Made by a program: the position numbers and the translations under genes
Source of the DNA: Gloeobacterales cyanobacterium
GTDB lineage: Bacteria; Cyanobacteriota; Cyanobacteriia; Gloeobacterales; PMM-0068
Length of the DNA: 64,000 nt
Direction of reading: 5' to 3'
NCBI GenBank assembly: GCA_038245785.1
Contig: JBBRSB010000008.1
Coordinates: forward strand, 1 to 64,000
Notes under the pieces: model-generated
What the model was told of the DNA's origin: nothing
Database searches by the model: none
Seen by the model: only the letters and a program-made list of their open reading frames with translations
Shown here: piece by piece, positions 1,944 to 48,283 of the stretch
Position numbering within the stretch: the stretch's first letter is position 1
How the letters are laid out: the number at the start of each line of letters is the position of its first letter

Positions 1944-2765
1944 TTATGCGGTAGAAGCGCCTGGACCTGTGGATTCTACTGGCCATTGCCGATAGTTAAG
2001 ACGCCAGTCATGGCCTTTCACCGCCAGAGCAGCAAGACAGTCGGTAGTCGGTGTAAACGACTGAAGAGACCAGTGAGCACTCACCTGCGCATCTTGAGCA
2101 ACCCCCACCAATCGAGCCGGTTTCCCCTCTATTGGGGTGATCTCCACATCTCTTAGCAGATGGGTTAGACTTTTACCCGTAGCTTTGAGATAAGCTTCTT
2201 TGAAAGTCCATAACCGGAAAAATGCTCGGGGCTGCTCATGGGGAGGAAGTGCTTTTATAAGCGCATGTTCTCTAGGTGAAAAGAAGCGTTGGGCTAGCTG
2301 TTCAGCCGTAGGAACCGGGCGAATATATTCTAGATCCACCCCCACCTCCCAGTTCCAAGCAAGTGCACAGAGGGCTAGCCCATTGGAGTGAGATAGGTTG
2401 AAATGGAGTGTGTTTCCATGTAAGTTCGAGTGACGGACTAAGGCAGGCTTGCCCTTAGGCCCATAGCAAAATTGCAGGCGGTCCGGCTCACAGTTTAAAT
2501 ATCGTCCCAGAATCGACCTCAACTGACCCCGCGCAGCAATAAAACGCCTGCGGTCCTGCTCAAAATGAAATCGTTGGGCTCGTTCCCGTTCATTCTCGGA
2601 AAGAACTTGGCTAAATGCTTGAACCATCAGGTCTGGTTGGTCCAAAGTGATTTGCCATATATGGACTTCATCCCCAGCCATTAACAAATCTGCAGAGGTT
2701 GTGGACCACCATCCCCAGCAATCCTGCATGGCAATAGTTTTCATTTGTATATCCCATAAAAGCAA
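1944..2765 (-). CDS. hetI: Sfp/HetI-type 4'-phosphopantetheinyl transferase
   Basis: GKP, FNLSHS, VGVDLE and FFRLWTFKEAYLKATG motifs; last gene of the PKS operon. The true start may be a downstream ATG. Confidence 0.93.
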   Translation of the reverse strand: MLLWDIQMKTIAMQDCWGWWSTTSADLLMAGDEVHIWQITLDQPDLMVQAFSQVLSENERERAQRFHFEQDRRRFIAARGQLRSILGRYLNCEPDRLQFCYGPKGKPALVRHSNLHGNTLHFNLSHSNGLALCALAWNWEVGVDLEYIRPVPTAEQLAQRFFSPREHALIKALPPHEQPRAFFRLWTFKEAYLKATGKSLTHLLRDVEITPIEGKPARLVGVAQDAQVSAHWSLQSFTPTTDCLAALAVKGHDWRLNYRQWPVESTGPGASTA

Positions 2766-2767
2766 TT

Positions 2768-3964
2768 TCAGGAATAAATATCCGCAGGGTCTGCCTCTCG
2801 TAGTTTACGTACGGCAAGAACACCCGCGAGAAAACACATTAATGCTGTTAAGAGAAAGACAACAATAGCTCGGCCAAGTTCCATATAAATAGGTAATCGA
2901 GCAGACTGAGCAATTAAGTTATAAACACCTAGGGAGAGGAAGAATCCTGGGATATATCCCAGAATAGATAATAACAAAGCTTCCTGAAAAACGATTCCCA
3001 GTAAATAGGTATTTGTATAGCCTATGGCTTTCAATGTGGCATATTCTCCAAGATGTGCGGATACATCGCTATAGAGTACTTGGTAAACGATTACAGAGCC
3101 GACGATAAAGCCTAGAAAAGCGCCTAGCGTAAATATATAACCGATAGAGGAGCTGTCTTGCCAGTACTGTTTTTCCAGATTGATGAAATCTTCTAAGGTC
3201 AAAACGGAAACATCACTTGGAAGCCTTGCTGTCAGACTATCACGAACCTGTTGGACGTTCACTCCAGGCTCCAATTTAATTAAACCCAGACTAGGCTTAT
3301 TTAAAGACCGAGATGTAATGCGCCTGAAATTTAATTCGCTGGTCATCAAAAGTCCATCAGCAGAAAAGATTGAACCGCCTAGTCTGAATAGACCGCCGAC
3401 CTTAATTCTTCGATTATTTACCTCAGTAGTAACTCTTTTGCCTTGCTCAAATTCCGCAGAAACAGGCCCAAACTCCGAACGGGATGCTCTGTCAAAGAGC
3501 ACGACATCAGGGATTTTTAATTTATCCAGCTGTTGCGTGACTTCTGGCAAGTCAAAGGCAGGTTTATCGGGCTCGAAACCAAAAACAATAAGTGGACGAC
3601 TACGCCGTGTTTCAGGATTCTTCCAGACTACAAAAGCAGAATAAAGAGGACTTACCGATTCAACTCCTGCAAAAGCTCTGGCTTGTTCAAGACGTCGATT
3701 AGGGATGCCTTGACTAGGATAGTTGATATCAATCAGGTTATTTACTCCAGGATTGACTAAAACAAGGTCTGCTTGAAGATGGCGATGGATCTGCACCGCC
3801 GTATCATACAGAGAATCCCGTAGCCCCAGCTGAACAAATAACAATAAATTAGCAAAAGCGACTCCAGCCAAGGCAATTAGAAGCCGGGATTTTTCGCGGG
3901 TGAGTTGTAACCACGGCAGAGGTATCCCTAGGAAGTTTATCCCCCGAATAAATTTAGGTAGCAA
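2768..3964 (-). CDS. devC: DevC-family ABC exporter permease (FtsX-like)
   Basis: IPLPWLQLTREKSRLLIALAGVAFA N-terminus, VIVYQVLYSDVSAHLGEYATLKAIGY, C-terminal KLREADPADI. Confidence 0.93.
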   Translation of the reverse strand: MLPKFIRGINFLGIPLPWLQLTREKSRLLIALAGVAFANLLLFVQLGLRDSLYDTAVQIHRHLQADLVLVNPGVNNLIDINYPSQGIPNRRLEQARAFAGVESVSPLYSAFVVWKNPETRRSRPLIVFGFEPDKPAFDLPEVTQQLDKLKIPDVVLFDRASRSEFGPVSAEFEQGKRVTTEVNNRRIKVGGLFRLGGSIFSADGLLMTSELNFRRITSRSLNKPSLGLIKLEPGVNVQQVRDSLTARLPSDVSVLTLEDFINLEKQYWQDSSSIGYIFTLGAFLGFIVGSVIVYQVLYSDVSAHLGEYATLKAIGYTNTYLLGIVFQEALLLSILGYIPGFFLSLGVYNLIAQSARLPIYMELGRAIVVFLLTALMCFLAGVLAVRKLREADPADIYS

Positions 3965-5426
3965 TGTTCACCTCTACCTTCAAGTTTGTTAGGTTGGTAA
4001 CCTGCTTGCTATAGGCTGGATCTAGACGAATTTTGACCTCTACGACCCGAGAATCCACATCAGCAACAGGGTCGGCATTGAGGATATCTTTTTTGCGGAT
4101 TTGCTTACCAACCTGAGTAACGGTACCCTTGAATTTCCCGGATAAAGCATCACTGCTAACGTTGGCTCGCTGGCCCACGCGGACACGGTCAATATCACTC
4201 TCATAAACCTCAGCGACCACGTACATCTGGTCGGTCCGTCCGAGATCAGCAATGCCTTGCTGGTCAATAATTTCACCTGGCCGAGCATAGATTTTCAAAA
4301 TCTGGCCGTTCTCTGGTGAGCGTACATTAGTTAATTCCAGATCCGCCTGGGCTTCTTTGACAGCCCCCAGCGCGTCTTTAACCTGAGCTACTGCCAGACG
4401 CACATCCGTAGGGCGGACCTCTGCAACGCTAGATAAAGTAGATCGGGCTTGGTTCAATTGTTCACGCAGGCTATCTACGGCTAGACGCTTACTGTCTGCG
4501 ATGGAGATGGAAATAGCTCCTTCGTCATAGAGCTGTTGGTTGCGCTTATCTTCTGCTTCCGCATTGCGCAACTCGGCCTTTAGACGCCCAATAGTTGCTG
4601 CCTGTGCGCTAATCTCCCCCGATTTTGCTCCCGCTTTGGTCTGTGCTAAGCGAGCGCGAGCGACTTCAACCTGCTCTTTAGCTCTATCTAGTGCCGCCTG
4701 ACGGCGCTCAGCGCTGTCAAGGGTTGCAATAATCTGACCATTACGGACTCTATCTCCCTCTTTAACGAGCAGCTTACTGATGCGCTGCTTTACCTCGACG
4801 GAACTAGGCGAAGACAGACGGATGAGCTCTCCTTCTGGTTCGAGACGGCCTGAGGCTGTCACCGCTTTTGGGTCTGGAGTAAGGGCTACCGGAGGAGAAG
4901 CAGGAGATACTGGACTTTGTACCAAAGAGTTGGCTCCCAGGAGCTTGGAGAATGCCAGAGCACCACTGGTAAGCAGTGCAGCGCTCACAAACACAACCGT
5001 AGATAAGGCCAAGTAACTTGAGAACGTACGAGGCTGTGCGATTCCTCTTTGTTGCTTCAGGGTCTCCTGCTTCAGGGGAGACAGATATACCTCCTCCCCT
5101 TTAACTTTCAGCCGTTCTGAGGTGTCTACTCCTCCAGAAGGAAGAGAAGCGGAGGAAAGAGAAGATATACTTTTCGCGAGCGCGCGTGATTCTAAGAACT
5201 TGGAGCAGGCAATGGCTCCACTGGTGAGCAAGGCCGCGACCATAAACACACTGGCAGACCAGCCTAAATCACCAGGAAAAAGATTGCTCTTCACTTCTAT
5301 CCATTGAGCAGAGGGGAATTGAGCCAATGGCTTGGAAAAGGCAACAGTATGGCTGGTAAGCAGCACAGAAGCCGCAAGCACGCTGACATTCCATCTCAAG
5401 TAGTTTGCTAACAGATGACTTTTCAC
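3954..5426 (-). CDS. devB: DevB-family membrane fusion protein with extended N-terminus
   Basis: AVTASGRLEPEGE, LLVKEGDRV, coiled coil, MYVVAEVYESDI, DVDSRVVEVKIRL. Confidence 0.92.
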   Translation of the reverse strand: MKSHLLANYLRWNVSVLAASVLLTSHTVAFSKPLAQFPSAQWIEVKSNLFPGDLGWSASVFMVAALLTSGAIACSKFLESRALAKSISSLSSASLPSGGVDTSERLKVKGEEVYLSPLKQETLKQQRGIAQPRTFSSYLALSTVVFVSAALLTSGALAFSKLLGANSLVQSPVSPASPPVALTPDPKAVTASGRLEPEGELIRLSSPSSVEVKQRISKLLVKEGDRVRNGQIIATLDSAERRQAALDRAKEQVEVARARLAQTKAGAKSGEISAQAATIGRLKAELRNAEAEDKRNQQLYDEGAISISIADSKRLAVDSLREQLNQARSTLSSVAEVRPTDVRLAVAQVKDALGAVKEAQADLELTNVRSPENGQILKIYARPGEIIDQQGIADLGRTDQMYVVAEVYESDIDRVRVGQRANVSSDALSGKFKGTVTQVGKQIRKKDILNADPVADVDSRVVEVKIRLDPAYSKQVTNLTNLKVEVNIAT

Positions 5427-5455
5427 ATCTGCCTCCTATTTAGATTTAGAGGTAA

Positions 5456-6193
5456 TCAATTTTGTCGGGGCATAAATTCGAACGAACTGGATGGTGATTC
5501 CGTCTCACGTTCCGAGTTCAACAGTCGGCCGTCCTCCATATAAATTGTGCGGTCAGCGACATTTAGAATGCGGTTATCGTGGGTCACTAGCAAGATGGCG
5601 CATCCTTGTTGCTTGGCAAGATGCTGCATAAGCTCTACTACATCCCGTCCCGTTTTCTTGTCGAGGGCTGCAGTGGGCTCATCTGCCAGAATCAATTGCG
5701 GGTTGTTTACTAAGGCGCGGGCAATGGCTACCCGTTGCTTTTGACCCCCGGAGAGATTTTGGGGATAGCAATCCACATATTCTGCCAAGCCGACGGTTTT
5801 GAGCATAGCCTCTGATTTTGAGCAGGCATCCTCAGAGGAAACCTTTTTCTGAAGTTGGACTGACATTTGAACATTCTGCCGGGCTGTCAGAAAAGGGATT
5901 AAGTTATGGCCCTGGAAGATATAGCCGATTTTGCGGCGAATCTGGACTAATTGTCGCTCTTGAGCATCATGAAGCTCATAACCAACAAATTGAAGACGAC
6001 CTTCCTGAACAGAACGCAAACCGCCAATCAAGCTTAAAAGTGTGGTTTTACCTGATCCTGAAGGACCAGCCATAATTACAATTTCACCAGGTTGAATCTC
6101 TAAAGAAATGTCAAAGAGCACCTGTTTACATAATGAGCCTTGTCCAAAGTAGTGGTTGAGTCTTTGAATCGCAACGACAGGCAAATGAGACAT
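5456..6193 (-). CDS. devA: DevA-family ABC transporter ATP-binding protein
   Basis: Walker A GPSGSGKT, LSGGQKQRVAIARAL, ILADEPTAALD, VTHD; LNHYFGQG N-terminus typical of DevA. Confidence 0.93.
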   Translation of the reverse strand: MSHLPVVAIQRLNHYFGQGSLCKQVLFDISLEIQPGEIVIMAGPSGSGKTTLLSLIGGLRSVQEGRLQFVGYELHDAQERQLVQIRRKIGYIFQGHNLIPFLTARQNVQMSVQLQKKVSSEDACSKSEAMLKTVGLAEYVDCYPQNLSGGQKQRVAIARALVNNPQLILADEPTAALDKKTGRDVVELMQHLAKQQGCAILLVTHDNRILNVADRTIYMEDGRLLNSERETESPSSSFEFMPRQN

Positions 6194-6375
6194 TGAAAGA
6201 CCTCAATGTATGTAAGATGACATTGCAAGGGAAACTAGCAGAACGAAGTAATCTGACATTCTCTTTTCCATAGATCAATTCCAAAACATAAATAACAGCA
6301 CCCTATCTAATTGCAAATTCTCTGTTCATGGTAGTTAGATCTGCATGTGAATGGTTTTTAGTTTGAAACTGCTTC

Positions 6376-7542
6376 TTAGGTTAGAACTACATTTTTCTCG
6401 TACTTCTGGAGTTCAGACCCTGGCCTAGCTATTTCCTTTTCAAATAAGCCCAATGAGCGCATAACTGCTTGATCCATGTCGTAATACCTGTAATCTCCTA
6501 ATCGTCCGGCAAACAAAACGGTGCCATTGAGTTTTTCAACTTCTTTGGTGTAAAGATTCAGACGAGCGCGATTCGCTTCATTCAAAATAGGATAGTAGGG
6601 ATCGTTCTTGCCCGGCACATAGGCTTGCGGGTATTCCATCATCAGGGTGGTTTTGGGAGAGCTTTGTCCCGATAAATATTTTTGTTCCGTGATGCGAGTG
6701 ATGTCGTAATCATTGGGATAATTTACCGTCCCCACTTCTTGATACCACTCTTGTTCTACCGTCTCAGACTGAAAGTGAACGCTGCGATAGGGTAACTCAC
6801 CATAGGCATAATCAAAAAAGGCATCGATCGGGCCAGTACAAATCAGCCGATTAAATTTAATATCGTTAATAACTTCTCGATAATTCGTGTTCAGCAACAC
6901 TTTTATATTGGGATGGGCCAGCATCCGTCGAAACATTTCGGTATAACCCAGCCTGGGCATTGCCTGGTATGGATCTTGAAAGTAACGATTATCGCGGCTG
7001 ATATAGACTGGAACTCGCCCTGTGACACCCCGATCCAGTTCTTCTGGTTTCAGATTCCATTGCTTTTGGGTGTAGCGAAGAAAAATATTGTTGTAGATGT
7101 AATCGGCTAGAAATTTCAGGTCGCCACTTGTGTTTTCCCTCAGTTTGAAAATAGGAACCTTGACACCAAAACCAAAATTTTCTAATAACAAGTTTTCGAG
7201 CTTTTCGGCATAGCGGGGAGGAAACAAGTCATAGAGGCTATTGAGATTGAATGGAATGGGAACTTTCTTTCCTTCAATCACACCGAGGACGTGGTGATAG
7301 TAATGTCGCCATTCCGTAAATTGGGAAAGGTGATCCCAGACCTTTTTCGACTTGGTATGAAAGATGTGAGGCCCATACTTGTGCACCAGAATACCGTGCT
7401 CATTGTAATAGTCGTAGCTGTTCCCACCAATGTGGTCACGCTGTTCGACTATTAGTACCCGTTGCCCGAACTGAGTGGCGATGCGTTCCGCTAACACACA
7501 TCCTGAATAGCCTGCCCCGACGATTAACCAATCACATCGCAT
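6376..7542 (-). CDS. glf: UDP-galactopyranose mutase
   Basis: IVGAGYSG FAD motif, HIGGNSYD, HKYGPHIFHT, YFQDPYQAMP, GRLGDYRYYDMD. Confidence 0.96.
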   Translation of the reverse strand: MRCDWLIVGAGYSGCVLAERIATQFGQRVLIVEQRDHIGGNSYDYYNEHGILVHKYGPHIFHTKSKKVWDHLSQFTEWRHYYHHVLGVIEGKKVPIPFNLNSLYDLFPPRYAEKLENLLLENFGFGVKVPIFKLRENTSGDLKFLADYIYNNIFLRYTQKQWNLKPEELDRGVTGRVPVYISRDNRYFQDPYQAMPRLGYTEMFRRMLAHPNIKVLLNTNYREVINDIKFNRLICTGPIDAFFDYAYGELPYRSVHFQSETVEQEWYQEVGTVNYPNDYDITRITEQKYLSGQSSPKTTLMMEYPQAYVPGKNDPYYPILNEANRARLNLYTKEVEKLNGTVLFAGRLGDYRYYDMDQAVMRSLGLFEKEIARPGSELQKYEKNVVLT

Positions 7543-7575
7543 TGTTCATACTCCGAAGATTTATTATGGTGTCGC

Positions 7576-8757
7576 CTATTCAAACGAGTAGGGTTCATGG
7601 ATGGCTTTCAGTGCACCAGTTTCAAGGATGCTTTCTAAGCAACGGACCACTTCAAACACAGCTTGATTTTGATAGGCTTCGACCTTAGCGCGATAACGGG
7701 AAAAGGTTTCCGGTTGGAGCAGTTGGGCCACCGCATGAGACACATCGCGAAAATGCCGAACAACAATGCCTAACTCCTGCTCTTCTAGCCAATCTGCACT
7801 TGCTCGCTCCTGAAACAGGGTCATGACCGGGTGGCACTCCGTGATGACGGGCAACTTCATGGCGATCGCCTCACTAATGCCTACACTACCGGGTTTACCA
7901 ATAAAGAAATCCGCCAGATGCATGTAGTAGGGAATCTGATTTGTAAACCCTTCCACAAAGTAGGGGATGCGACTAGGTCGCTGACGCAAATCTCTGGCTA
8001 AGGCTTTATTACGCCCACAAATGAAGATGAGTTGCAGGTTAAGCGTCGACTGCTCCAGGCGATCGGCAATCTCAATCATTTCCCTGGAGCCGTGACTGCC
8101 AAAAGTAATTAAGCCCGTAGGCAGATTGGGCTGCAGTCCCAACCGTTGGCGTTCTTGCTGGCGAACCACTGGATCGGCAGTTCTAGAATTCAGCATCACA
8201 GGCTGATTAAACTGGGGATGGATCACTACACCTGAGGTCTGAAACAGCTTCTCATCGGGAAACCCAACCGCTTTTGCCTGCTGGATGGCACGCTGGGAAG
8301 GACAGATCAGAAATTGCTCTTGGGGCTCAATCCAGAAATGGGTCGGACAATCGGCAAAATCAGTGATGGAGGTGACAAAAGGGGTTGCGGGACATTCCAG
8401 CCGCAGGCTTTCGCAAAGGGCTCGGTTTACATGGGGGAGCAAAGAAACGACCAAATCGGGCTGATGCTCACGCCAGTATTTTCTAAGACGGTTTCGCCAG
8501 GCAAAATGATGCAAGCGAATTTGCAGCTTAAACAAAGGAACTGATATGGGATCGTTAATAAGTCTTGCCCACTTTTTCTTAAGAACCAAATTGTTATAAA
8601 AATCCTGAGAAAAACTCGTTCCAAAGATTTCTTTAAAAACCTCGATCACTTCGACTTGCCATGGCAAATTCTGATGCTCAATAACCTTTTGTAAAGCATT
8701 TGCGGTGCTACGATGACCTCCGCCCATGTCAAAAATCGCAAAATATACTCTTTTCAT
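7576..8757 (-). CDS. Glycosyltransferase, MGDG-synthase/UgtP-like (GT28)
   Basis: N-terminal MGGGHRS, PDLVVS, ITDF, FIGKPG..ISEA motifs. Confidence 0.88.
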   Translation of the reverse strand: MKRVYFAIFDMGGGHRSTANALQKVIEHQNLPWQVEVIEVFKEIFGTSFSQDFYNNLVLKKKWARLINDPISVPLFKLQIRLHHFAWRNRLRKYWREHQPDLVVSLLPHVNRALCESLRLECPATPFVTSITDFADCPTHFWIEPQEQFLICPSQRAIQQAKAVGFPDEKLFQTSGVVIHPQFNQPVMLNSRTADPVVRQQERQRLGLQPNLPTGLITFGSHGSREMIEIADRLEQSTLNLQLIFICGRNKALARDLRQRPSRIPYFVEGFTNQIPYYMHLADFFIGKPGSVGISEAIAMKLPVITECHPVMTLFQERASADWLEEQELGIVVRHFRDVSHAVAQLLQPETFSRYRAKVEAYQNQAVFEVVRCLESILETGALKAIHEPYSFE

Positions 8758-9612
8758 TTAATTAGTTTTCCTATAAATAGTTACTTTTGCCTTCGCCTCC
8801 ATCTGATTCTCTATTCGCATTTGATTTAGATTGGTTATGCCCATCCACCGATAAACCGTATCTCCAAAGCGTGGGAAAATTTGTTCGATCGCAAATAACA
8901 GTTTGGTAAGAACTTCTGTTGCAGGATCCTGATTGACAATTACTTCGGCTTGATTCTTTTCGATTGCCGCGATCGTTGCTTTGGCTGTCTTTTCTAGCGT
9001 AGACGTACCCGATAATTTTGGTATTGGCACGCCAGTATCGGCAGTCATTCCTTGTCCAGAGATATATCCCGGACAGACTAATGAGATTTTCACGCTAGTA
9101 CCAGCCAATTCTTGCCGAAGTGCATCCGACCACATAATCAAGCCAGCTTTACTGGCTGAATAGATGCTGTTATAAGGCGCTCCCTTTTTACCAGCCAGAG
9201 AGGCAATATTAACGATATGACCGCACCTACGGAGCAGTAGCAAACGAGTTAACTCCATTGCAGCCAGTAAATTCGTGTTCAACACCGACTGAATTTCGGA
9301 GGTGGAATAATTTTGGAAACTTTTGTAGATTTCTATACCCGCATTATTAATTAAGATGTCAATCGAACCTGCTCGCTGCTCGATCTGTAAAATTAGGGCT
9401 GGCAATTCTTCCACTCGACTCATGTCACAGGGAATGCCTATCCACTTACCCCCTAATGCTTGGACTGCATCGGCTACCTGCTCCAGGCTATCTTGAGAGC
9501 GAGAAACACCAACAATAGTCGCCCTTTTTCTCGCCAGAGCAAGAGCCAAAAAGGCTCCTAGGCCGCGCGAAGCACCTGTCACAAGTACTGTCTTCCCTGC
9601 AATGGTTGTCAT
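8758..9612 (-). CDS. hetN: HetN-like short-chain dehydrogenase/ketoacyl reductase
   Basis: TGASRGLG, NNAG, YSASK catalytic motif; MTTIAGKTVLVTG N-terminus. ERGSGR-type signal is not conserved (LRRCGH at that position). Confidence 0.82.
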   Translation of the reverse strand: MTTIAGKTVLVTGASRGLGAFLALALARKRATIVGVSRSQDSLEQVADAVQALGGKWIGIPCDMSRVEELPALILQIEQRAGSIDILINNAGIEIYKSFQNYSTSEIQSVLNTNLLAAMELTRLLLLRRCGHIVNIASLAGKKGAPYNSIYSASKAGLIMWSDALRQELAGTSVKISLVCPGYISGQGMTADTGVPIPKLSGTSTLEKTAKATIAAIEKNQAEVIVNQDPATEVLTKLLFAIEQIFPRFGDTVYRWMGITNLNQMRIENQMEAKAKVTIYRKTN

Positions 9613-9670
9613 AGATTAGTTAGTATCCGATTGATTTTTTGTAGCGAGTGCTTAAGTCCCTACCGCGAAC

Positions 9671-11533: not shown

Positions 11534-11545
11534 TAGTTAACCCTC

Positions 11546-11836
11546 TCAAAGTTCAATAGTTTCTGATTGAGCAGTCTCAGCTTCTTCTTCTAAACGTTGG
11601 GAGAGACTCTCAATGGTTGGGTAATACATCAGCAAAACTGGGGACAACTTAAAACCTAATAAATTTTCCAGTTTGCCTGCTATAACTAGAGCCTGAGCTG
11701 AATTTAAACCATAGCTATCGAAAGGTTCTCGCATATCAATATCATCTGGTTTGACGCCCATTTGTTGGGCTAATTCATTGACTAACCACGTCTGAATAGC
11801 TGCAGATGTCCATGCTTTAGAGTTGAAGGAATTCAT
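11546..11836 (-). CDS. Stand-alone acyl carrier protein with acidic C-terminal tail
   Basis: IQTWLV, PFDSYGLNS (Ppant Ser), YPTIESL; tail EEEAETAQSETIEL. Confidence 0.9.
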   Translation of the reverse strand: MNSFNSKAWTSAAIQTWLVNELAQQMGVKPDDIDMREPFDSYGLNSAQALVIAGKLENLLGFKLSPVLLMYYPTIESLSQRLEEEAETAQSETIEL

Positions 11837-11871
11837 AGTAAATCCGTTAGACGCTTAGTCAAGATAAGAGG

Positions 11872-13542: not shown

Positions 13543-13674
13543 AGTTTCAGCCCTCTAAAGTGAATCGTGAATGATTAGTTTCTACTTTTTGGATATGCTT
13601 GTTAACCATCTCAAATTATTTAGATGGTCATTTCTGCTTTTTTAGCTGAGTAGACCCTTGACACGGCCAAGCGC

Positions 13675-16647: not shown

Positions 16648-16681
16648 AGTTCTATCCTTTAATATAATTCGGATTCCCTAC

Positions 16682-18406
16682 TTATCTGGGCAACTTTAGA
16701 GAAAAGATAGTAGTCTTTGCCCCTAGAAAGCGTGAGTAAACTTTTCCATGGAGATCATGGGAGGTAATGTCAGTAATCAAGCTGGTTTCCGTTTTAGATT
16801 TAACTTCTGCAGAAACATAAAAAGTTTCATCACATGGAATATCTGCAAAATGCTCAAACTTTTCTAATAATGCTGGCAAACAAATTTCTTTGTGGAAATG
16901 GCATAACCAAATCCAAACACTATGGAACTGCAAGTCAATAACATAAGGGTTAATCGTCTGTATAGGAAACTGCCCTTGCTTTTTTTCTTCCACCCCCTTC
17001 CATTTCAATCGGGTAGTAATTCTTTCAGGAGTAATATTTATAACATTTTCCACAGCCTGAAAAGCAGGCCCATGGAACAGGCTTAGTTCTCCATCTTGAT
17101 AACAGGGCCTATCGAAGTTGGAAATTGCAGGATCTATTGTTAAATCAAAAGAATCATGGATAGGAGCACTCAGAATATCTCGCAGCAACTTTAGCTGACA
17201 AGAGTAATGATAGTGTATTTTCCCAGCGTTACTTCTACTCCATACTTTTGCTTCAAACTCTATTTCGCTAGAATTTTTTGCAATTTCTTTGATATCTAGA
17301 ACATATTCATTTGCTAAACTTTCATTAAAAATGATACCCTTTAAAATTCTAAAGTTTATACAACTGAAAAATTTATAGCCAGGGTAAAGTTGTTCACAGG
17401 CATTGGCAATCCACGATATTGCACAGGTGGCTGGAAGAACTGGATTACCAGCAATCACATGATCTTGCAAAAAAGGATTTGCTTCTAAAGTCAATCTACG
17501 ACGGATGGAGTGAGTTTCTAGCTGTGGATTCAACTTGCTAACAGGTATAAAAACTGGACTACCAATCACTACCTGCGCTGTTTTCTGGTTAACTATGTTT
17601 AATTCGTCAACCATCATTTGTGCACCAACTTCAATCGGAATAATTTCGATATTTCGTTGGGCAAAAGCGTTCTTCAATTCTGGAGAGACCATACCACTAT
17701 CCCAAGGACCCCAATTTATAGCAACCACATGGCAAGAGGGATTATGCTGTTTGACGAGATGAGCTGACTTATTAAGAATTTCGTTAGCCATTGCATAATC
17801 AGTCTGGCCGATATTCCCAAAAAAACCAGATACAGAGGAAAATAGGACTAAGTAGTCAAGTTGACTCACGGGTATGCAAGATAGTAAGTTCTCTAAGCCC
17901 TTTACTTTTGCTGTATAAACAGTTTCAAAATCCTCTTCAGTTTTCTTTTCAATTAACTTATCTGCTAAATTTCCAGCTCCGTGAATAATGCCAGTAATAG
18001 GTCCCATTCGACTAATAGTAGCTTCCAGCTTTTGCTGTAAGGCCGAGATATCTGTTATATCCACATCGATATATTCTGCTTGCCCTCCAGCTCTTTCAAT
18101 AGCTCGTAGCGTATTTTTAATTTCTCGACTAGATATAATAGAGCGAAATACTTTCTGCACCGCCATGGGCGAAGGCTTCCCTCCTTTCGCTAAGAGGTCT
18201 TCCATGATCAACTTTTTGAGCTGAGATTCATCAGAGTAATTCTTAGCCCAATCAGGTTCATTGTCCAAAATGGATGAACGGCCTAATAATACAAATGTGC
18301 ATGGCTGATGCTGCACTAGTCTGGTCACGCACTTGCCCGTAATACCTTTAGCTCCACCACTAACAAGAAAAACTGATGACGGACTAATCTGAGTTGCTGA
18401 TGCCAT
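16682..18406 (-). CDS. HglG-like ketoreductase-dehydratase (KR-DH)
   Basis: GGAKGIT, IHGAG, DYAMAN, INWGPW (KR); NPFLQDHVIAGNPVLPA and LFHGPAFQ (DH). ATG at 18406 preferred over TTG at 18418. Confidence 0.88.
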   Translation of the reverse strand: MASATQISPSSVFLVSGGAKGITGKCVTRLVQHQPCTFVLLGRSSILDNEPDWAKNYSDESQLKKLIMEDLLAKGGKPSPMAVQKVFRSIISSREIKNTLRAIERAGGQAEYIDVDITDISALQQKLEATISRMGPITGIIHGAGNLADKLIEKKTEEDFETVYTAKVKGLENLLSCIPVSQLDYLVLFSSVSGFFGNIGQTDYAMANEILNKSAHLVKQHNPSCHVVAINWGPWDSGMVSPELKNAFAQRNIEIIPIEVGAQMMVDELNIVNQKTAQVVIGSPVFIPVSKLNPQLETHSIRRRLTLEANPFLQDHVIAGNPVLPATCAISWIANACEQLYPGYKFFSCINFRILKGIIFNESLANEYVLDIKEIAKNSSEIEFEAKVWSRSNAGKIHYHYSCQLKLLRDILSAPIHDSFDLTIDPAISNFDRPCYQDGELSLFHGPAFQAVENVINITPERITTRLKWKGVEEKKQGQFPIQTINPYVIDLQFHSVWIWLCHFHKEICLPALLEKFEHFADIPCDETFYVSAEVKSKTETSLITDITSHDLHGKVYSRFLGAKTTIFSLKLPR

Positions 18407-18484
18407 AAACGCTCTCAATTGGATAACTTATTAAAGTTGTTTAATTGGTCCTACTGTATTCGTTGGATATGAAACTCTTTGGGT

Positions 18485-21400
18485 CTATGAACAGGTAAGT
18501 GTCACTCGTCTTTGCAAACCATAACCCACCTCACTTAGATAGCGATTAGGATCATGAAGCTCAGCAATGATGTATTTCACAGATTGTTCAGCATCTAAAG
18601 CAGGACTTAGATCAATAGCCCGACAAAATACTGACTCCCATTCAAATCTAAGTGCTTTTGTCAGTCCAAATAATCCTGCGCCGATAGCATTAAAATTCAC
18701 TGTTCGCTCCAGACCAAATGCCCCATCGAGGCGAGCGATGGTGTAGAAAAAACTACATTCTTTATGCGCTGCTTCATTGAGTGATTTCTTGAGGTGCTTG
18801 GCCATTAAAAAAATATGTTTGACTATGGCTTTTTCCTGATCAAGATAGTGGATTTTACTATCCTGATTAGCTTCAATCAGAGGATGAAGATGGATAAAAG
18901 CAGCAATTGGTCCATAGGTATTGATAATAGCTTCCAACTTCTGTTCCAGATTCTTTTCACTCAAATCGTCAAGCACGACGCGATTAACACCATCGGGTAA
19001 AGATACTCTTTCCTTAACTATAGTTTCTGGAAAACTTAAGACTACAACTTTCCATCCCTTTCTCATTAAAGATTCTGCCAATTTAGCTGTAGTTAAAGAG
19101 CCGTCATCGGTAAGTAAACTAATGTGACTTTCAGGCATTCTTAAGTCCAGAAAATCAGGCTCCGGCAAGAATTTTAGCCTAGCCGGAGCGCGTAAAATAT
19201 TGTGATTGAGATGATGCTGTTGCTCATCAACCTGAGTTAGTGGAGCTTTTTTTTTTGCAGATGTTATCTGTGTCTGTATATATTCAACTACCTGACCCAG
19301 CGTGCGCAACTCCATTTCTGTCAGCTCCTCAGGATTTGGCCTCGGCAAATCGGGGAATGACTCTTGCAGGGCTCCCAGGATTTCAACCCGTTTAATCGAG
19401 TCAATGCCTAAATCTGCCTCCATATCCATCTCTAGCTCTAGCATCTCTGTTGGATAGCCAGTTTTCTCACTGACGACGTTTAGTAATGCCGCACCTAAGG
19501 TTGCGGAATCGATAATAGTGGAGGGTAAGGCTGTTAATTCTGAAGGGTTTTCTTGTGCAAGTTCTGTTTTCTCTGCACTCCTTGGCTGTTTTGATTCGAC
19601 GATAGTTGGTTCTTGGATCTCTGGCGCCTGAGCTAAGGGACTAATATCTTCAGGAACCACTGAGTTAGTAGTATCTCCAGAAATAGGCTCATTTGCTGGA
19701 CGAGTCGGTACAAAGCTAGCCTGACTCAGGCTGTCAGATACTTTCGTACTCATATACTCAACCACCTGACCTAGCGTGCGCAACTCCATCTCTGTCAGCT
19801 CTTCGGGATTTGGCCTCGGCAAAGCTGGGAATAACTCTTGCAAGGCCCCTAGGATTTCAACCCGTTTAATCGAGTCAATGCCTAAATCTGCCTCCATATC
19901 CATCTCTAGCTCTAGCATTTCTGTTGGATAGCCAGTTTTCTCACTGACGACGCTTAGTAATGCGGTACCCAGGGTTGTGGCATCGACAGTACTAGAGGGT
20001 AAAGCTGTTACTTCTGACAGGATTTCCTTTGTCGCGGAAGGCTCACTTGGGCTATCTAGAACCTGCTCTAGTTCGACCGTAGAGACAGCCATAGCCTCAG
20101 GTTTTGAGTCCATGACAGGGATTCCTTGCGTTGGATTTGTCCAATTTCCATTCCTTGAGGATAGCGGTGGCTTAGGTGCAATCTCATCATCAGGGGTAGT
20201 GATCGTTTCATGAGCACCTGAAATAACTGGATTAATCTCAACTGGATTAATCTGTCGTTTCAGAATATTCTGCTGTATCTGATGGGTGATGTCAGTATCT
20301 TCCGCTAGAGGCGCACTACTTTTCGGAAAATCAGTTTGAACATCTCTGCCTTGCTTACTAATATCCACTGATTCAGGAGCCCCTGTTATCAGCAAGCCAT
20401 ACTGTTTTTGGAGTAATTGGACAAGACTTTTTCCGTATTCCGTCTGACTCTTCAAGGACTGTTCATGGATGCGTAGAGTTTCTGCTTGATGATCATGGAA
20501 CCGCATCATACTACGTTCCAGACTTTCTGTTATGGAGGCGGCTGGCTTCTCTGTTGCGAACAAAGTACTTTGATGCTCCATCAGTTGAAAGAAGCTTTTT
20601 CCAGAGTCCCTCTGATGCGCCAGGTACTGTTCATGAAGCTGTAAAAGCTCACTCTGATGTTTCATAAACTGAGCTAAGCTCGATTCCAGGCCACTTAAAA
20701 GGTTCTGCTGGTAGTTCATTGGGATTGGTTGACTTGCGGAAGGCATCGTTGTTGCTATGGATACTGGAACAGGCTTTTCAAGCACAGATTCAACTCTAGA
20801 GTTGGATGTAATCACTGAAGTGCTCACTTTGGATTCATCCGTATGTTTTCCGTTTGCGATGGCCATATTTGATTCCTTGTTTCCATTGGTTTCAGAAAGT
20901 GAACTGACTGACTTAAACATTTTCAGCTCTTGACCTTTTTCAGTACTTTTTAGTACAACCTGATGACCATTACTTAGTGCCTGTTCATGGACTTTTTTCG
21001 TTTTTTCACTGATATGATTGGCACTGCTTAGACGCACATTCAACTTGCTTTGTTTTTTATTTTGCTGTCCTTCGGTGGTCGTGTAGTCCCGTTGGTAGGG
21101 GTCCAGATTATTCAAGGACAGACCCGCTACCTGTAATTGCACTACCGCTTCTCGCAGTTGGCGGTCGCTGTCTTTCTGCGGGCTTGTATTCAAGGCCACT
21201 GCTAAGTAGGGTCTATCGCCGAGGGTATCTTTCACTAAGTTCGTGAGCACATGCCGGGGACCAAATTCAACAAAGCAACGGCCCCCTGCTGCATAAATAT
21301 TCTCTATCTCATCCTTGAAAAGCACCGGATTGATCAGGTGTTTCTTCAAAATCTCCTGCATAGCTTGAGGTTCGGCTGGATAGGGCTTGCCCATCACGTT

Positions 21401-23884
21401 GGTATAGACAGGGATTTTGGCTTGCTGAAAGGAAATAGTATCTACGGCGTCGGCAAAAGGTTCTTGTGCATGACTGACCAAGGGAGTGTGAAAAGCGGCT
21501 GAGACAGGCAGTAGGACGGGATCGTAACCACGCTCCTGTAAGACTTGCTGAACCTGGTGTATGTCAGCCGTTGCTCCTGCAAGGACGAGCTGGCGATTGG
21601 AGTTTACGTTTGAGATAGTGACCTGGGGAAAGTCTCTAATTTCTGCAACTACCTTATCTATTTCTTCTTTAACGGCCAACATTGCCCCTGCATCGAAATC
21701 TGGATTTTTTGGAGCAGCCATTGCCTGTCCTCTGGCTTTAACCAGAGAGAAATAATCTTCTTCGCTAAGCACGCCTGCGGCCCAAAGAGCTGTCAATTCA
21801 CCAAAACTGTGGCCCGCCGCAAAATCAGGCTGAAACCCTGCTCCTTGCAAAATCTTAAAAAGGCTGACGCTAAAAGCACCAATCGCTGGCTGAGCATACT
21901 CAGTCTGTTGCAGGGCTTTAGTCTGAATCTGCTTAACTTCTGGAGTAAATCCGGGAGGAGGGAATACAACTTCTGATAAAGACTTCAAGCCATCCTCGGT
22001 TAGAAGATGGTCCATGCGGCTATAGGTTTGTCGTAACTGAGGGAAGTTCAAGGCCAATTCCCGTCCCATGTGCAGGTACTGGGCTCCCTGTCCTGAAAAC
22101 AGCGCGACCACTTTCCCCTTAGTATCAAAGGCTTTTTTCCGGTAATAGATGCCTAGAGGATGTTCCCAAGATTCTGCCTGTGGATTTTTCTTGAGGCAGT
22201 TAATCGCAGTCTGTAAGCGCTCACAGCATTCAGCTTGAGAAGCAGCAACAAAACCTACTCGTGCTGTGGAGATAGGCAAAGGAAGTTCTGAAGCTTGATA
22301 GGAAGTCATGATCTCTTTGTACTGAGCACTTCCACCTTCAGCATTGACCTTCGCTAGAGCCTCTTCACATTGACGGAGCAATTGTGCGGGACTTTCAGCC
22401 GCAAGCAGCACCGACTGAGGGGTGGGATGTAACCGATAGCTCTGGTCATGTTCGTGTTCATACTCTTCCAGCACGACATGATAGTTAGTCCCCCCAAAGC
22501 CAAAAGAGCTGACACTAGCTCTTCGAGGACCATGCTCTTCATGTTTTACCCAAGGCCGGGTTTCTGTATTGAGATAGAACGGGGAGTTCTCAATGTTGAG
22601 CTTGGGGTGGGGCTTGGTCACGTTGATGGTCGGAGGCAGGACCTTATGGTGCAGGGCAAGGGCCGCTTTAATCATGCTCGCCGCACCGGCGGCAGCCTTC
22701 GTATGCCCAATTTGGGATTTAACGGTCCCCAGGGCAACATGCTGCTTGCGCGGATTATGCTCGCTAAACACTTCTGCTAAAGCTTGGAATTCGGCCGGGT
22801 CTCCCGCCATCGTTCCCGTTCCATGGGCCTCAATCAGATCAACCGTCAACGGCGAAATGCCTGCGTCCTCATAGGCCCGTCGCAAAGCCCGGACCTGTCC
22901 CTTAGGACGGGGAGCATAAATACTTTTGTAGCGACCATCGCTGGAAGAACCAATTCCTCGAATTACGGCATAGATACGATCTTGGTCTCGCTCTGCATCC
23001 TCTAATCGTTTGAGAAGCATCATGCCAACGCCTTCTCCGAGCATGATTCCCCGTGACTGGGCATCAAAAGGTCGCACATGCTCTTGATCCGTAAGGGCGG
23101 GGGTCTTGCTGAAACACATGTAGGCAATAGGAGAGTTGTCCGTATCCACTCCACCGGCAAGCATCATATTGGCGCGGTAGCTAGTTAGTTCGCTGAGCGC
23201 TAGGCTCAACGCGCCCAAAGAACTAGCACAGGCTGCGTCCACCACACAGTTCATGCCGCCCAAGTCCAGGCGGTTGGCAATCCGCCCTGAGACTACATTG
23301 GCGAGCATCCCTGGGAAAGCATTCTCATCCCACTCCAAATAGGCTGATTTTATTTTCTCCACCACTTTCTGAGTATCCTCATCGGATAACCCACTGCTTT
23401 TCAGCGCTTTTTCCCACACGGGATACTGCAACCTGCTGCTAAAGGGCATCATCAGTTGCCTTCCTAGAGCCACACCCAGAATTACTCCCGTTCGTTCCCG
23501 GTTGAAGGCACGGGATTCACCATAACCCGCATCCTCCATCGTCTCCTTGGCAATGACTAGTCCCAAAAGCTGGGAAACATCCGTGTATTCAAGAACGTTA
23601 GGAGGAAGCCCAAACTCCATTGGGTTAAAATCCACCTCTGGAATAAAGCCTCCTCTTTTGCTATAGGTTTTGTCCCGTGCCCGTGGGTCTGGATCATAGT
23701 AGTCTTCAATCTTCCAGCGGGAAGGCGGTACATCCGTAATGCAATCGATTTTGTTGACGATATTTGTCCAGTACTCCTGTAAGTTTCTGGCCTGAGGAAA
23801 AAGAGAGGCCATGCCGATGATGGCTACAGGAGTTCGTTGCAGCTGCAGGTTGGTAGCGTTGGTTTCCATTGGTTTAACCGTCAT
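18485..23884 (-). CDS. hglE: HglE/PfaA-type iterative PKS: KS-AT-ACP-ACP-KR(structural part)
   Basis: KS DAACASS, EAHGTGT, IGHTKAAAG; AT GQGAQ, GHSFG, AFH; two LGIDSIKRVEI ACPs. Confidence 0.94.
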   Translation of the reverse strand: MTVKPMETNATNLQLQRTPVAIIGMASLFPQARNLQEYWTNIVNKIDCITDVPPSRWKIEDYYDPDPRARDKTYSKRGGFIPEVDFNPMEFGLPPNVLEYTDVSQLLGLVIAKETMEDAGYGESRAFNRERTGVILGVALGRQLMMPFSSRLQYPVWEKALKSSGLSDEDTQKVVEKIKSAYLEWDENAFPGMLANVVSGRIANRLDLGGMNCVVDAACASSLGALSLALSELTSYRANMMLAGGVDTDNSPIAYMCFSKTPALTDQEHVRPFDAQSRGIMLGEGVGMMLLKRLEDAERDQDRIYAVIRGIGSSSDGRYKSIYAPRPKGQVRALRRAYEDAGISPLTVDLIEAHGTGTMAGDPAEFQALAEVFSEHNPRKQHVALGTVKSQIGHTKAAAGAASMIKAALALHHKVLPPTINVTKPHPKLNIENSPFYLNTETRPWVKHEEHGPRRASVSSFGFGGTNYHVVLEEYEHEHDQSYRLHPTPQSVLLAAESPAQLLRQCEEALAKVNAEGGSAQYKEIMTSYQASELPLPISTARVGFVAASQAECCERLQTAINCLKKNPQAESWEHPLGIYYRKKAFDTKGKVVALFSGQGAQYLHMGRELALNFPQLRQTYSRMDHLLTEDGLKSLSEVVFPPPGFTPEVKQIQTKALQQTEYAQPAIGAFSVSLFKILQGAGFQPDFAAGHSFGELTALWAAGVLSEEDYFSLVKARGQAMAAPKNPDFDAGAMLAVKEEIDKVVAEIRDFPQVTISNVNSNRQLVLAGATADIHQVQQVLQERGYDPVLLPVSAAFHTPLVSHAQEPFADAVDTISFQQAKIPVYTNVMGKPYPAEPQAMQEILKKHLINPVLFKDEIENIYAAGGRCFVEFGPRHVLTNLVKDTLGDRPYLAVALNTSPQKDSDRQLREAVVQLQVAGLSLNNLDPYQRDYTTTEGQQNKKQSKLNVRLSSANHISEKTKKVHEQALSNGHQVVLKSTEKGQELKMFKSVSSLSETNGNKESNMAIANGKHTDESKVSTSVITSNSRVESVLEKPVPVSIATTMPSASQPIPMNYQQNLLSGLESSLAQFMKHQSELLQLHEQYLAHQRDSGKSFFQLMEHQSTLFATEKPAASITESLERSMMRFHDHQAETLRIHEQSLKSQTEYGKSLVQLLQKQYGLLITGAPESVDISKQGRDVQTDFPKSSAPLAEDTDITHQIQQNILKRQINPVEINPVISGAHETITTPDDEIAPKPPLSSRNGNWTNPTQGIPVMDSKPEAMAVSTVELEQVLDSPSEPSATKEILSEVTALPSSTVDATTLGTALLSVVSEKTGYPTEMLELEMDMEADLGIDSIKRVEILGALQELFPALPRPNPEELTEMELRTLGQVVEYMSTKVSDSLSQASFVPTRPANEPISGDTTNSVVPEDISPLAQAPEIQEPTIVESKQPRSAEKTELAQENPSELTALPSTIIDSATLGAALLNVVSEKTGYPTEMLELEMDMEADLGIDSIKRVEILGALQESFPDLPRPNPEELTEMELRTLGQVVEYIQTQITSAKKKAPLTQVDEQQHHLNHNILRAPARLKFLPEPDFLDLRMPESHISLLTDDGSLTTAKLAESLMRKGWKVVVLSFPETIVKERVSLPDGVNRVVLDDLSEKNLEQKLEAIINTYGPIAAFIHLHPLIEANQDSKIHYLDQEKAIVKHIFLMAKHLKKSLNEAAHKECSFFYTIARLDGAFGLERTVNFNAIGAGLFGLTKALRFEWESVFCRAIDLSPALDAEQSVKYIIAELHDPNRYLSEVGYGLQRRVTLTCS
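19278..20017 (-). repeat. Tandem ACP duplication within hglE (19278-19543 and 19752-20017)
   Basis: Two ~265-bp near-identical segments offset by 474 bp. Confidence 0.9.
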
Positions 23885-24407
23885 TTTCTAGGGCCTCACT
23901 CTTAGGTCTGGAGAACAGTTGTAAAAGGCAGAAAGTGCTCCAGAAAAAGCTTGTAGAGCAGGAAGAGCTACAGGCATAGGGCGCTATGTCAAATTTGGCC
24001 ATTCTTTGTGTGAAACAACTCTGTGTCAGCGATTACAGCTAATACATCTTTCTTACTAGAAGGCTACTTTATGGGTCGTGCGAAAATTTGGAAAATAGGC
24101 AGCAAAAAACTATAACTTGTATCTATCTAAGCGCACTCTGCTGGTGTTCTGCTTAAACCGATCTCTGTGGATTTACCGCTTCGGAGCACGGTATGGGGTT
24201 TTTTGGAGTAAAAGCGCACAACTGTGGCCTTTTGGCAAAATCGACTCAAAATCGACTAAGGTTCAACCGCATCCTAACCGAAGATATTCTTAGGGGGTGT
24301 CGTGCAAAATACAATCTGAGGCGAAAAAAAGCCCCAAAAACGGCAAAATCCCCACTCAGAAAGCTTTAAGAGGTCTAAGATTTAGCCTGTAATCTCCAAT
24401 AATTTAA

Positions 24408-36202: not shown

Positions 36203-36238
36203 GGGTACCCCTTAGAATTCAGTTAGTTACTGATAGCG

Positions 36239-38576: not shown

Positions 38577-38587
38577 ATCTTGGAACG

Positions 38588-40529: not shown

Positions 40530-40544
40530 AGCGTTGTCCGTCTA

Positions 40545-48274: not shown

Positions 48275-48283
48275 GTTGTCAAC

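Follow-up and report, generated by a model that had tools for sequence, protein, structure and literature searches.

A thirteen-gene operon in a Gloeobacterales cyanobacterium that may encode an exported heterocyst-glycolipid-like lipid and a candidate two-protein chain-offloading system

The DNA analyzed here, called the window throughout, is a stretch of 64,000 nucleotides from a Gloeobacterales cyanobacterium (GenBank assembly GCA_038245785.1, contig JBBRSB010000008.1), and it carries an operon of 13 open reading frames (ORFs), g1 to g13, that all lie on the minus strand, run from 23884 to 1944, and are separated by intergenic gaps of -11 to 182 bp (Table 1). An earlier note on this DNA had described 13 co-oriented, closely packed genes for synthesis, tailoring, glycosylation, export and activation, homologous to heterocyst glycolipid genes of Anabaena; the ORF list and domain calls on the 13 proteins, made with the curated cut-offs of Pfam and NCBIfam and a Pfam domain threshold of E <= 1e-5, confirm that description, and the homology, to hgl, hetN, hetI and dev/hgd genes, holds as well. 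We favor, with moderate confidence, the reading that this single operon makes and exports a "secondary lipid" of the heterocyst glycolipid (HG) kind, a long-chain alcohol glycoside that would probably carry a galactofuranosyl group, and that the free acyl carrier protein (ACP) g5 and the aldolase-fold protein g6 offload the chain.

The large synthase protein g1 scores 1792.8 bits against the PfaA model TIGR02813 (cut-off 1010), retains both ACP DSL motifs, the GHSxG motif of the acyltransferase (AT) and the active-site cysteine of the ketosynthase (KS), and shows 52-55% identity to HglE from those canonical and hgl-like islands with which it was compared. The ketoreductase-dehydratase (KR-DH) g2 matches the C-terminal part of the PfaA model in NCBIfam, g3 matches the PfaB family (150.2 bits, cut-off 144.3), and g4 matches TIGR02814 (PfaD; 682.4 bits, cut-off 449) and is the only PfaD in the host genome. 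The KS-like half of g3 lacks both the active-site cysteine and the HGTGT motif and is therefore a chain-length factor (CLF), as the earlier note had labeled it, and the gap of only 34 bp between g2 and g3 holds no stand-alone KS gene. Pfam finds neither a thioesterase (TE) domain nor NAD_binding_4 among the 13 proteins. At the end of the operon, g13 has the domains of an Sfp-type phosphopantetheinyl transferase (PPTase), which agrees with its earlier naming as hetI, but its 267.7 bits against the HetI equivalog NF042922 fall under the cut-off of 370, so that the name holds for the type of enzyme and not at equivalog level.

The three exporter proteins pass their models, with 367.9 bits for DevA (g10, TIGR02982, cut-off 295.8), 338.9 for DevB (g11, TIGR02971, cut-off 129) and 475 for DevC (g12, TIGR01185, cut-off 290), and the devA-devB-devC order noted earlier is real and common to the same-order genome G003. 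TIGR02971 covers residues 189-488 of g11; this ORF starts with GTG and its N-terminal extension of ~180 residues lies outside the DevB model, so its start may be miscalled. Three OEP-family genes that could supply a TolC/HgdD-type outer-membrane partner lie elsewhere in the host genome and none in the island. The operon had been called self-contained, which holds only in part, since neither a thioesterase nor a thioester reductase (TER) lies in it and the outer-membrane partners are encoded elsewhere.

Table 1. Genes and other features of the operon region (window coordinates)
Feature	Position	Strand	Description
g1	18485-23884	-	KS-AT-ACP-ACP with C-terminal ~230-aa extension, 1799 aa; HglE+HglF-like, PfaA-type
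g2	16682-18418	-	KR-DH, HglG-like; Pfam KR, PS-DH, PKS_DH_N
g3	13675-16647	-	CLF (inactive KS) with AT-like domain; HglC-like, PfaB family
g4	11872-13542	-	PfaD-family enoyl reductase (ER), HglA-like
g5	11546-11836	-	Free 96-aa ACP with acidic C-terminal tail ...SETIEL; Pfam PP-binding
g6	9671-11533	-	620 aa; predicted docking, flavodoxin/CoaB-like and class II aldolase-fold domains; Pfam: TubC_N only
g7	8758-9612	-	Classical short-chain dehydrogenase/reductase (SDR), HetN position; adh_short 169 bits
g8	7576-8757	-	GT28/MGDG_synth lipid glycosyltransferase, like monogalactosyldiacylglycerol (MGDG) synthase and UgtP; PF06925 44.4 bits
g9	6376-7542	-	UDP-galactopyranose mutase (Glf)
g10	5456-6193	-	DevA-family ABC ATPase
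g11	3954-5426	-	DevB-family membrane fusion protein, ~180-aa N-terminal extension
g12	2768-3964	-	DevC permease
g13	1944-2765	-	Sfp-type PPTase, HetI-like; ACPS + AASDHPPT_N
Strain-variable cassette	6170-9881	-	Last ~70 codons of g6, SDR, GT28, Glf, first 8 codons of devA
accA-g1 intergenic region	23885-24407	-	523 bp; likely operon promoter region

Islands of this kind are already published, and their novelty is thus smaller than the earlier note claimed. A screen of ~3,600 genomes (Perez Gallego et al. 2025, PNAS; PMC11804610) defined an hgl island as a cluster of at least 7 of the 19 island genes of Anabaena PCC 7120 and found that, of 2,279 cyanobacteria not belonging to the heterocytous clade, 35 have such an island, among them Gloeobacter violaceus and two further basal genomes; all are described there as lacking hglT and their products as "enigmatic", and compact "hgl-like" islands are reported in Nostocales as well. 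In two non-heterocytous strains and in Calothrix CCY 0018, whose islands lack hglT, the same paper reports tetracosane-1,3-diol (C24) along with glycosides of it that carry a hexose or a pentose; it proposes that islands without hglT export the aglycone, and argues that these simpler "HG analogs" predate heterocysts. A "cryptic" hglE-KS cluster is described in a non-diazotrophic cyanobacterium (PMC12587747), and a study of hybrid polyunsaturated fatty acid (PUFA)-synthase pathways treats other cyanobacterial Pfa-like clusters, not the window operon, as far as its text was available (JACS Au 2026; PMC13291983). Under the definition of PMC11804610 the window holds homologues of hgdC, hgdB, hglE(+F), hglG, hglC, hglA, the hetN-position SDR, hetI and the ACP half of hglB, assigned by tblastn against the canonical islands of Cylindrospermum NIES-4074 and Anabaena azotica and not against the PCC 7120 proteins.

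Supplementary Table 4 of PMC11804610 lists HglE (KS-AT-2ACP, 1541 aa), HglF (162 aa, with no domains stated and the remark "probably interacts with HglEA"), HglG (KR+DH, 570 aa), HglD (KS, 453 aa), HglC (KS/CLF/AT, 1109 aa), HglA (ER, 442 aa), HglB (ACP+TER, 506 aa), HetN (SDR, 287 aa) and HetI (PPTase, 237 aa). Mapped against that table, the island lacks HglD, the TER half of HglB and HglT (a GT1), as the earlier note had it. The operon resembles the non-heterocytous and hgl-like islands of that paper in the core hgdC, hgdB, hglE(+F), hglG, hglC and hglA, in the lack of hglT, hglD and the TER of hglB, and in a host without detected nif or hetR genes, and that paper lists such islands in basal genomes of Gloeobacter type (Supplementary Table 7); it differs in holding SDR, GT28 and Glf inside the operon, and in including devA, in the order devA-B-C. 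With the canonical Anabaena/Nostoc island it shares the synthase logic, the gene order, the HetN-position SDR, the HetI-type PPTase and an exporter of the DevBCA family; the canonical island, which serves heterocysts, has in addition HglD, the ACP-TER protein HglB, the GT1 HglT, the epimerase HgdA, a GT2 and a DUF2141 protein. The GT28 is the only glycosyltransferase (GT) of the island described here.

The comparison with individual islands locates the difference at the end of the synthase genes. The canonical island of Anabaena azotica SJ-1 runs hgdB, hgdC / HglE, KR-DH, KS, CLF-AT, PfaD, a 505-aa protein with PP-binding and NAD_binding_4 (246.5 bits), and SDR, and because its ACP-TER stands behind PfaD where the window has ACP and g6, g5-g6 occupy the HglB position. 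The complete 4.19-Mb genome G003, of the host's order, has g1, g2, KS, g3, g4, g5, g6, a PapA-like protein, devA, devB and devC. Nostocales hgl-like islands (L007 and others) read devA, devC, devB / g1, g2, g3, g4, a PapA/condensation-type acyltransferase, g5, g6 and so differ from the window in the acyltransferase between ER and ACP, which was Pfam-checked in L007, found by tblastn in L173-L175 and deduced in other loci from a gap of 1.3-3 kb. The heterocystous Cylindrospermum NIES-4074, whose main island shares with the hgl-like islands and the operon the order E-(F)-G-C-A-ACP-x-hetN...hetI, has only two PfaD genes, and that island (L069-L071, AP018269.1, ~6.27-6.33 Mb), with hglT, GT2, DUF2141, epimerase (hgdA), hgdC and hgdB, ends in ER, ACP, a g6-like protein (61% identical), SDR (58%) and hetI. 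The operon's proteins lie at roughly the same distance from the canonical as from the hgl-like islands (g2 53-61%, g3 43-55%, g4 60-74% identity). In a tree computed with FastTree (LG+gamma) on g2+g3+g4 of 21 islands, rooted at the midpoint only and without a Pfa outgroup, window and G003 form a lineage of their own (support 0.989), three islands with hglT-type surroundings, that of Cylindrospermum NIES-4074 included, form a clade (1.0), and the Nostocales hgl-like islands split from all others (1.0).

The protein that stands in the TER position, g6, has a single Pfam match, to TubC_N (PF18563; 76.8 bits, cut-off 26), and its architecture was approached through an AlphaFold model built on an alignment of 38 homologues (pLDDT 80.1, pTM 0.85). 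In the model, residues 1-57 form a putative beta-hairpin docking domain that superposes on that of AerJ (8aqq; Z 9.7, root-mean-square deviation 1.4 over 56 residues), with which it also matches by sequence (2.7e-10). Residues ~90-308 are predicted to be flavodoxin/Rossmann-like, with a middling best match (Z 9.6) to the CTP-/phosphopantothenate-binding CoaB domain of CoaBC, and residues ~321-600 are predicted to adopt the class II aldolase/adducin fold, with VIA-align Z scores of 11-13.4 (1pvt 13.4; RhuA, 1gt7, 13.2; 2opi 12.9; the decarboxylase YgbL 12.4). The top Foldseek matches of the model are rhamnulose-1-phosphate aldolases (E 2.7e-4, probability 1.0). The "aldolase-like" label of the earlier note thus holds at the level of the fold (class II aldolases, Z 13.4 for model residues 321-600). 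In all 47 members of the g6 family, distant ones included, H515, H517, H575, D488, E545, R443, G445, K448 and P485-S486-Y487 are invariant, and the HxH...H pattern together with an acidic residue may form an aldolase-type metal site, a proposal read from conservation and not from superposition. A local match to an MtnB-like aldolase-II protein, not significant overall, takes in the SG..K and KPS-acid motifs and would be in line with such a site. Searches of the PDB with the g6 sequence and profile returned docking domains only, NCBIfam holds no family for g6, and the ESM Atlas gave no usable match to residues 60-620.

Predicted fold and invariant HxH...H plus acidic residue place g6 closest to the class II aldolase/adducin superfamily (FucA, RhuA, AraD, MtnB), which also includes decarboxylases (YgbL 6voq; 2z7b) and oxygenases (pyruvic oxime dioxygenase, TqaM); g6 differs from class II aldolases in its added N-terminal docking and flavodoxin/CoaB-like domains and in a substrate that is presumably bound to a carrier protein. 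With trans-acting TubC_N enzymes (the halogenase AerJ 8aqq, TubC, EpoB) it shares the docking domain, its partner ACP having a short conserved acidic end, but its catalytic body would be of the class II aldolase fold and not a halogenase or nonribosomal peptide synthetase domain. We know of no member of the class II aldolase superfamily that acts in lipid chain release.

Conservation of g5 with g6 suggests that the two work together. Of 401 genomes sampled from the class, 31 (in 22 of 169 genera) have a homologue of g6, as does 1 of 13 other genomes of the host order, and g5 immediately precedes g6 in 44 of 45 genome loci, the 45th beginning 100 bases before g6, and in 18 of 18 further loci. 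The ACPs preceding g6 homologues end in S-[ED]-x-[FILV]-[QEHD]-[ILMV]-COOH in all 22 that were aligned (51 loci are listed). In two natural fusions of a fatty acyl-AMP ligase (FAAL), an ACP and g6 (P0242 and P0243, 1284 and 1249 aa, one from "Cyanobacteria bacterium J06621_8") the ACP ends at ~693 and g6 residues 41-615 resume at 698, a peptide bond replacing the docking domain. The conserved tail and these fusions argue that the docking domain of g6 would bind the tail of g5.

The company that this pair keeps varies. Among 18 loci, g5-g6 follow an Hgl/Pfa-type synthase in 10 and a type I polyketide synthase (PKS) KS-AT in 6, with 2 more too short to tell; an SDR comes directly after g6 in 5, a GT28 follows in 3, SDR + GT28 + Glf in 2, and a PapA-like acyltransferase is present in 3. 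In the cleanly scanned type I PKS/FAAL contexts (L095-L097, L159) a KS-AT(-ACP) without KR stands before g5-g6 and the cluster has no TE; L161 is the exception: its g5-g6 stand behind PfaD, and farther downstream that locus encodes KS-AT-ACP-TE as a protein of its own. We considered and rejected the idea that g6 and TER are mutually exclusive, since ACP-TER stands immediately before ACP-g6 in 2 of the 18 loci (L158, L169).

Three of these contexts deserve description for their own sake. A separate cluster type (L095-L097, L164, L170) combines FAAL, a protein of ~460-500 aa that matches no Pfam family, KS-AT, ACP, g6, SDR, GT28, a second SDR and Glf (FAAL was Pfam-checked in L095 alone; the loci L164 and L170 were assigned by tblastn only), with extras that differ between loci and include a GMC oxidoreductase, a methyltransferase and an ALO-type FAD oxidase (L095), further GT28 or GT2 genes and an MFS transporter (L095, L097) and devBCA (L096); to our knowledge no product has been assigned to it. 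In L159 (6776-9325) KS-AT-ACP, g6 and SDR are followed by a UbiA prenyltransferase, a HAD phosphatase and a methyltransferase, and the HAD enzyme would suit a route in which g6 gives rise to a phosphorylated intermediate. L161 (8528-15253) reads g4, GT2, ACP, g6, GT28, then KS-AT-ACP-TE, a type III PKS, an ICMT-type methyltransferase, an epimerase and devBC, and resembles phenolic-lipid (alkylresorcinol) clusters.

Taken as a pathway, the operon would work as follows. The PPTase g13 would activate the carrier proteins, and g1-g4 would act as an iterative synthase building a long, largely saturated acyl chain that ends on g5, whose acidic tail would recruit g6 through the beta-hairpin docking domain. 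At the conserved class II aldolase-type site, presumably metal-dependent, g6 would offload or transform the thioester; the case for g5-g6 as the chain-ending step rests on their place in the operon, the docking motif, the naturally fused proteins and the lack of any TE or TER. The SDR g7 would reduce the resulting carbonyl to an alcohol, g8 would glycosylate the alcohol with UDP-galactofuranose made by g9, and DevA-DevB-DevC, with a TolC-type channel encoded elsewhere, would place the glycolipid in the cell envelope. Since an SDR and then a GT or acyltransferase follow, and the latter need a hydroxyl, g6, alone or with the SDR, must on this logic yield a carbonyl that becomes an alcohol. We rank three chemistries for g6: first, release of a methyl ketone from a beta-ketoacyl-ACP by hydrolysis and decarboxylation; second, acyl transfer to a phosphorylated C3 acceptor such as dihydroxyacetone phosphate (DHAP); and third, retro-aldol release of an aldehyde. 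We favor the methyl-ketone route because beta-keto-acid decarboxylases occur in the fold family and because no KR is found in the PKS modules that precede g5-g6 in L095-L097 and L159. DHAP is the classical nucleophile of the class II aldolase fold, and on the second route the SDR would do the job of an acyl-DHAP reductase, leaving a glycerol-like acceptor for the GT28; this chemistry may be comparable to that of AfsA and acyl-DHAP reductase.

The alternative that survives best, though we judge it unlikely, is that the island makes the HG analogs already reported, a C24-type alkane-1,3-diol and its 1-O-glycosides, with g6 and the SDR performing the net reduction of TER and the GT28 replacing HglT. 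The C24 diol and its glycosides do come from hglT-less islands (PMC11804610), and Symploca sp. SIO2E9 and Chroococcidiopsidaceae CP_BM_ER_R8_30, both among the 35 genomes of Supplementary Table 7 of that paper, have hgl islands and g6 homologues alike. The Cylindrospermum NIES-4074 island, moreover, groups with the canonical ones (support 1.0) yet has ACP + g6 + SDR in place of ACP-TER. Against a role as substitute reductase, the NAD_binding_4 domain of thioester reductases is absent from both g6 and g7, and the loci that hold TER and g6 together (L158, L169) argue for different jobs.

The genes that would make the head group follow g6 closely, with a gap of 0 bp between g7 and g8 and of 33 bp between g8 and g9. 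The SDR g7 has the TGxxxGxG and YxxxK motifs and is 58% identical to the SDR at the same position in the main hgl island of Cylindrospermum NIES-4074. The GT28 g8 clears PF06925 (cut-off 25), reaches 89.3 bits against an NCBIfam diglucosyl-diacylglycerol synthase model with a cut-off of 500, and in PDB sequence searches matches MGD1 (4wyi, 1.2e-19) and a processive diacylglycerol (DAG) glucosyltransferase. The mutase g9 scores 432 bits against the Glf equivalog TIGR00031 (cut-off 303.75). Among 33 metagenome loci found with g8, L095-L097 carry g5, g6, g7 and g9 beside g8 and the 3-kb contig L094 carries g7 and g9 only, and g8 and g9 also stand with g6-g7 in 2 of 18 species genomes (L164, L170); Glf beside GT28 here and in these six other loci points to galactofuranose. 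One could also suppose that GT28 and Glf make a galactofuranosyl DAG membrane lipid while the synthase product is exported unglycosylated, in keeping with the solved relatives of g8 and with the aglycone export proposed for hglT-less islands (PMC11804610). We find this improbable: a better-scoring plant-type MGDG_synth gene (92.7 bits) lies elsewhere in the host genome (G000:C1:161336-161848) and is presumably the housekeeping galactolipid synthase, g8 being a second, divergent paralogue; relatives of g8 stand directly beside g6-g7 in unrelated synthase contexts (L095-L097, L161, L164, L170); and the tight spacing of g7, g8 and g9 within the operon speaks against a separate lipid.

Strain-level variation marks out the same genes. 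Contigs from two DNA runs of other samples (X2, X3) match 1944-6169 and 9882-21900 at ~96% and, at both 6169 and 9882, continue into sequence unlike the window for 255 letters or more; the call of a swap rests on these loose contig ends, not on missing coverage of 6170-9881 in four runs. The window g6 (P0001) is 98.5% identical to its nearest homologue (P0002) over residues 1-550 and 63.6% over residues 551-620, a drop that places a breakpoint at nucleotide ~9882, and over its last 62-70 residues it comes nearest to a more remote lineage of the family (P0008 79%, P0005 76%). Comparison of these sequences suggests that 6170-9881 has been exchanged as a block between closely related strains. Related islands carry a PapA-like acyltransferase at the cassette position; SDR-GT28-Glf appears to be a swappable head-group module for which close relatives carry other content.

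We give little credence to the idea that the assembly joined two co-occurring strains into a chimera, switching at the conserved 3' end of g6 and the start of devA, in which case these 13 genes in precisely this order would belong to no one genome. Both breakpoints do lie within conserved coding sequence, all words of 6000-12000 are present only in the probable source run (X1), and cassette-less relatives ~96% alike occur in other samples. Both junctions are nevertheless in frame, g6 retains every invariant residue past its junction, and the affinity of its C-terminal residues with a related lineage is what natural recombination would give; even in a chimera, the cassette would sit between g6 and devA in the donor strain.

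That the operon is a PUFA or ordinary fatty-acid synthase feeding membrane lipids is very improbable, since, although the PfaA, PfaB-family and PfaD models pass their NCBIfam cut-offs and accA lies directly upstream, the 13 proteins include no PfaC with its tandem FabA-type DH (no FabA-type dehydratase/isomerase domain and no PfaC-type KS at the Pfam threshold), the KR-DH is split off, and DevABC, the GT and Glf stand in the same operon.

Two RNA-library runs from two studies gave contigs 95-99% alike on g6-g5-g4 (one contig of 2,390 nt), g3, g2, g1 and devA, and, with DNA carry-over possible, these are a weak hint that operons of this kind are expressed. Several observations weigh against the reading of the operon as a g6-offloaded, galactofuranosylated and exported alkanol. 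Pfam Aldolase_II (PF00596) gives no match to g6, and hhalign of the g6 profile with two cyanobacterial Aldolase_II proteins is not significant (probabilities 0.5 and 0.8). With ACP-TER and ACP-g6 side by side in L158 and L169, g6 cannot be a plain substitute for TER and its job may not be release, and the FAAL-ACP-g6 fusions, which have no KS in the same protein, fit a beta-keto substrate less well. The closest solved relatives of g8 act on diacylglycerol and not on alkanols, and we know of no GT28 that uses UDP-galactofuranose. At 6169, the RNA run or runs that reach it show the cassette-less junction and so have no bearing on expression of g7-g9.

A hetR search that gives ~260 bits in 3 of 3 Nostocales finds no match in the host genome (5.0 Mb, 255 contigs, 98% complete) and none in G003, and nothing in the host exceeds the nifH cut-off, the best match (211 bits) being read as ChlL-like; the non-heterocystous host supposed in the earlier note is therefore in line with a genome in which neither heterocyst regulator nor nitrogenase is detectable. 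Nor does the host genome hold a second PfaD island or, elsewhere, an HglB-type reductase, its best NAD_binding_4 match scoring 38.6 bits against 246.5 for a real HglB. AccA has two relatives 91-93% identical, after which named cyanobacteria are flat at 64-69%, identities that would fit a lineage without close named relatives, and the host is likely early-branching, as the earlier note had supposed in calling it basal.

Upstream of g1, the accA-g1 intergenic region contains a terminator-like hairpin behind accA (24338-24315) and a weak promoter-like site (24029-24001), both at chance level, and no NtcA-type GTA-N8-TAC site; scans for promoters, terminators and NtcA sites were all at chance level. 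The gene directly upstream of the operon, 523 bp off, is accA (acetyl-CoA carboxylase carboxyltransferase alpha; 24408-25490, minus strand), whose homologues of ~326 aa place its true start probably ~34 codons inside the annotated ORF. Farther on in the window, 28483-29937 encodes an RPE65-type carotenoid oxygenase. A hyp/glycolysis/PFOR/hox block at 34647-52713 holds genes for an AIR-synthase-like (HypE-type) protein, a His phosphatase, a pyruvate kinase-like protein, HypD, phosphofructokinase, a DHO-dehydrogenase-like protein and a 1213-aa pyruvate:ferredoxin oxidoreductase (PFOR), then HoxE/F/U/Y/H-type genes, the first of which is set apart from the others by a gene for a TPR protein. The earlier note had speculated that the exported lipid could be a surface or gas barrier of relevance to this oxygen-sensitive block; we found no support for a tie between the island and the hyp/PFOR/hox genes (~34.6 kb onward), synteny in relatives lying outside the search. 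At 59012-62776 lie a KAP-family P-loop NTPase and a Uma2 endonuclease in a stretch of low GC (0.36 at 60-62 kb) that may have a mobile origin or a role in defence.

Although the kind of island is published (PMC11804610), three features are undescribed in the papers searched: an ACP with a docked aldolase-fold enzyme in the HglB position, the built-in SDR-GT28-Glf genes, and the evidence for exchange of the cassette. The words "glf" and "galactofuranose" occur 0 times in the main text of PMC11804610, and no paper in the literature searched connects a docking domain, a class II aldolase or Glf to heterocyst glycolipids; figures in the SI appendix of PMC11804610 may show such ORFs. That paper leaves open, in the parts available to us, how sugar is attached in hglT-less islands and what basal islands make, and the window gives testable answers to both.

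Looking beyond this operon, we tentatively raise the possibility that g5-g6 is an unrecognised chain-offloading system of cyanobacterial long-chain lipid assembly lines, used behind Hgl/Pfa-type synthases, behind FAAL with single-module PKSs and in fused form, that it may be an older terminal module of HG synthesis for which HglB was substituted in most heterocystous lineages, with the HetN SDR a leftover of the g6-SDR pair, and that downstream head-group cassettes are swapped between strains ~96-98% identical. Such exchange between near-identical strains would make the head-group genes mobile as a block. As a conserved enzyme in place of a thioester reductase, g6 has a natural test of its role in the main island of Cylindrospermum NIES-4074, with its ACP, g6-like protein and SDR and no HglB fusion, and if it is indeed a new release enzyme it could be used in engineering long-chain alcohols or ketones. 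Heterocyst glycolipids serve as fossil biomarkers, and their origin is debated; the pair of GT28 and Glf predicts a galactofuranosyl head group, which would be a possible new biomarker for a deep-branching lineage.

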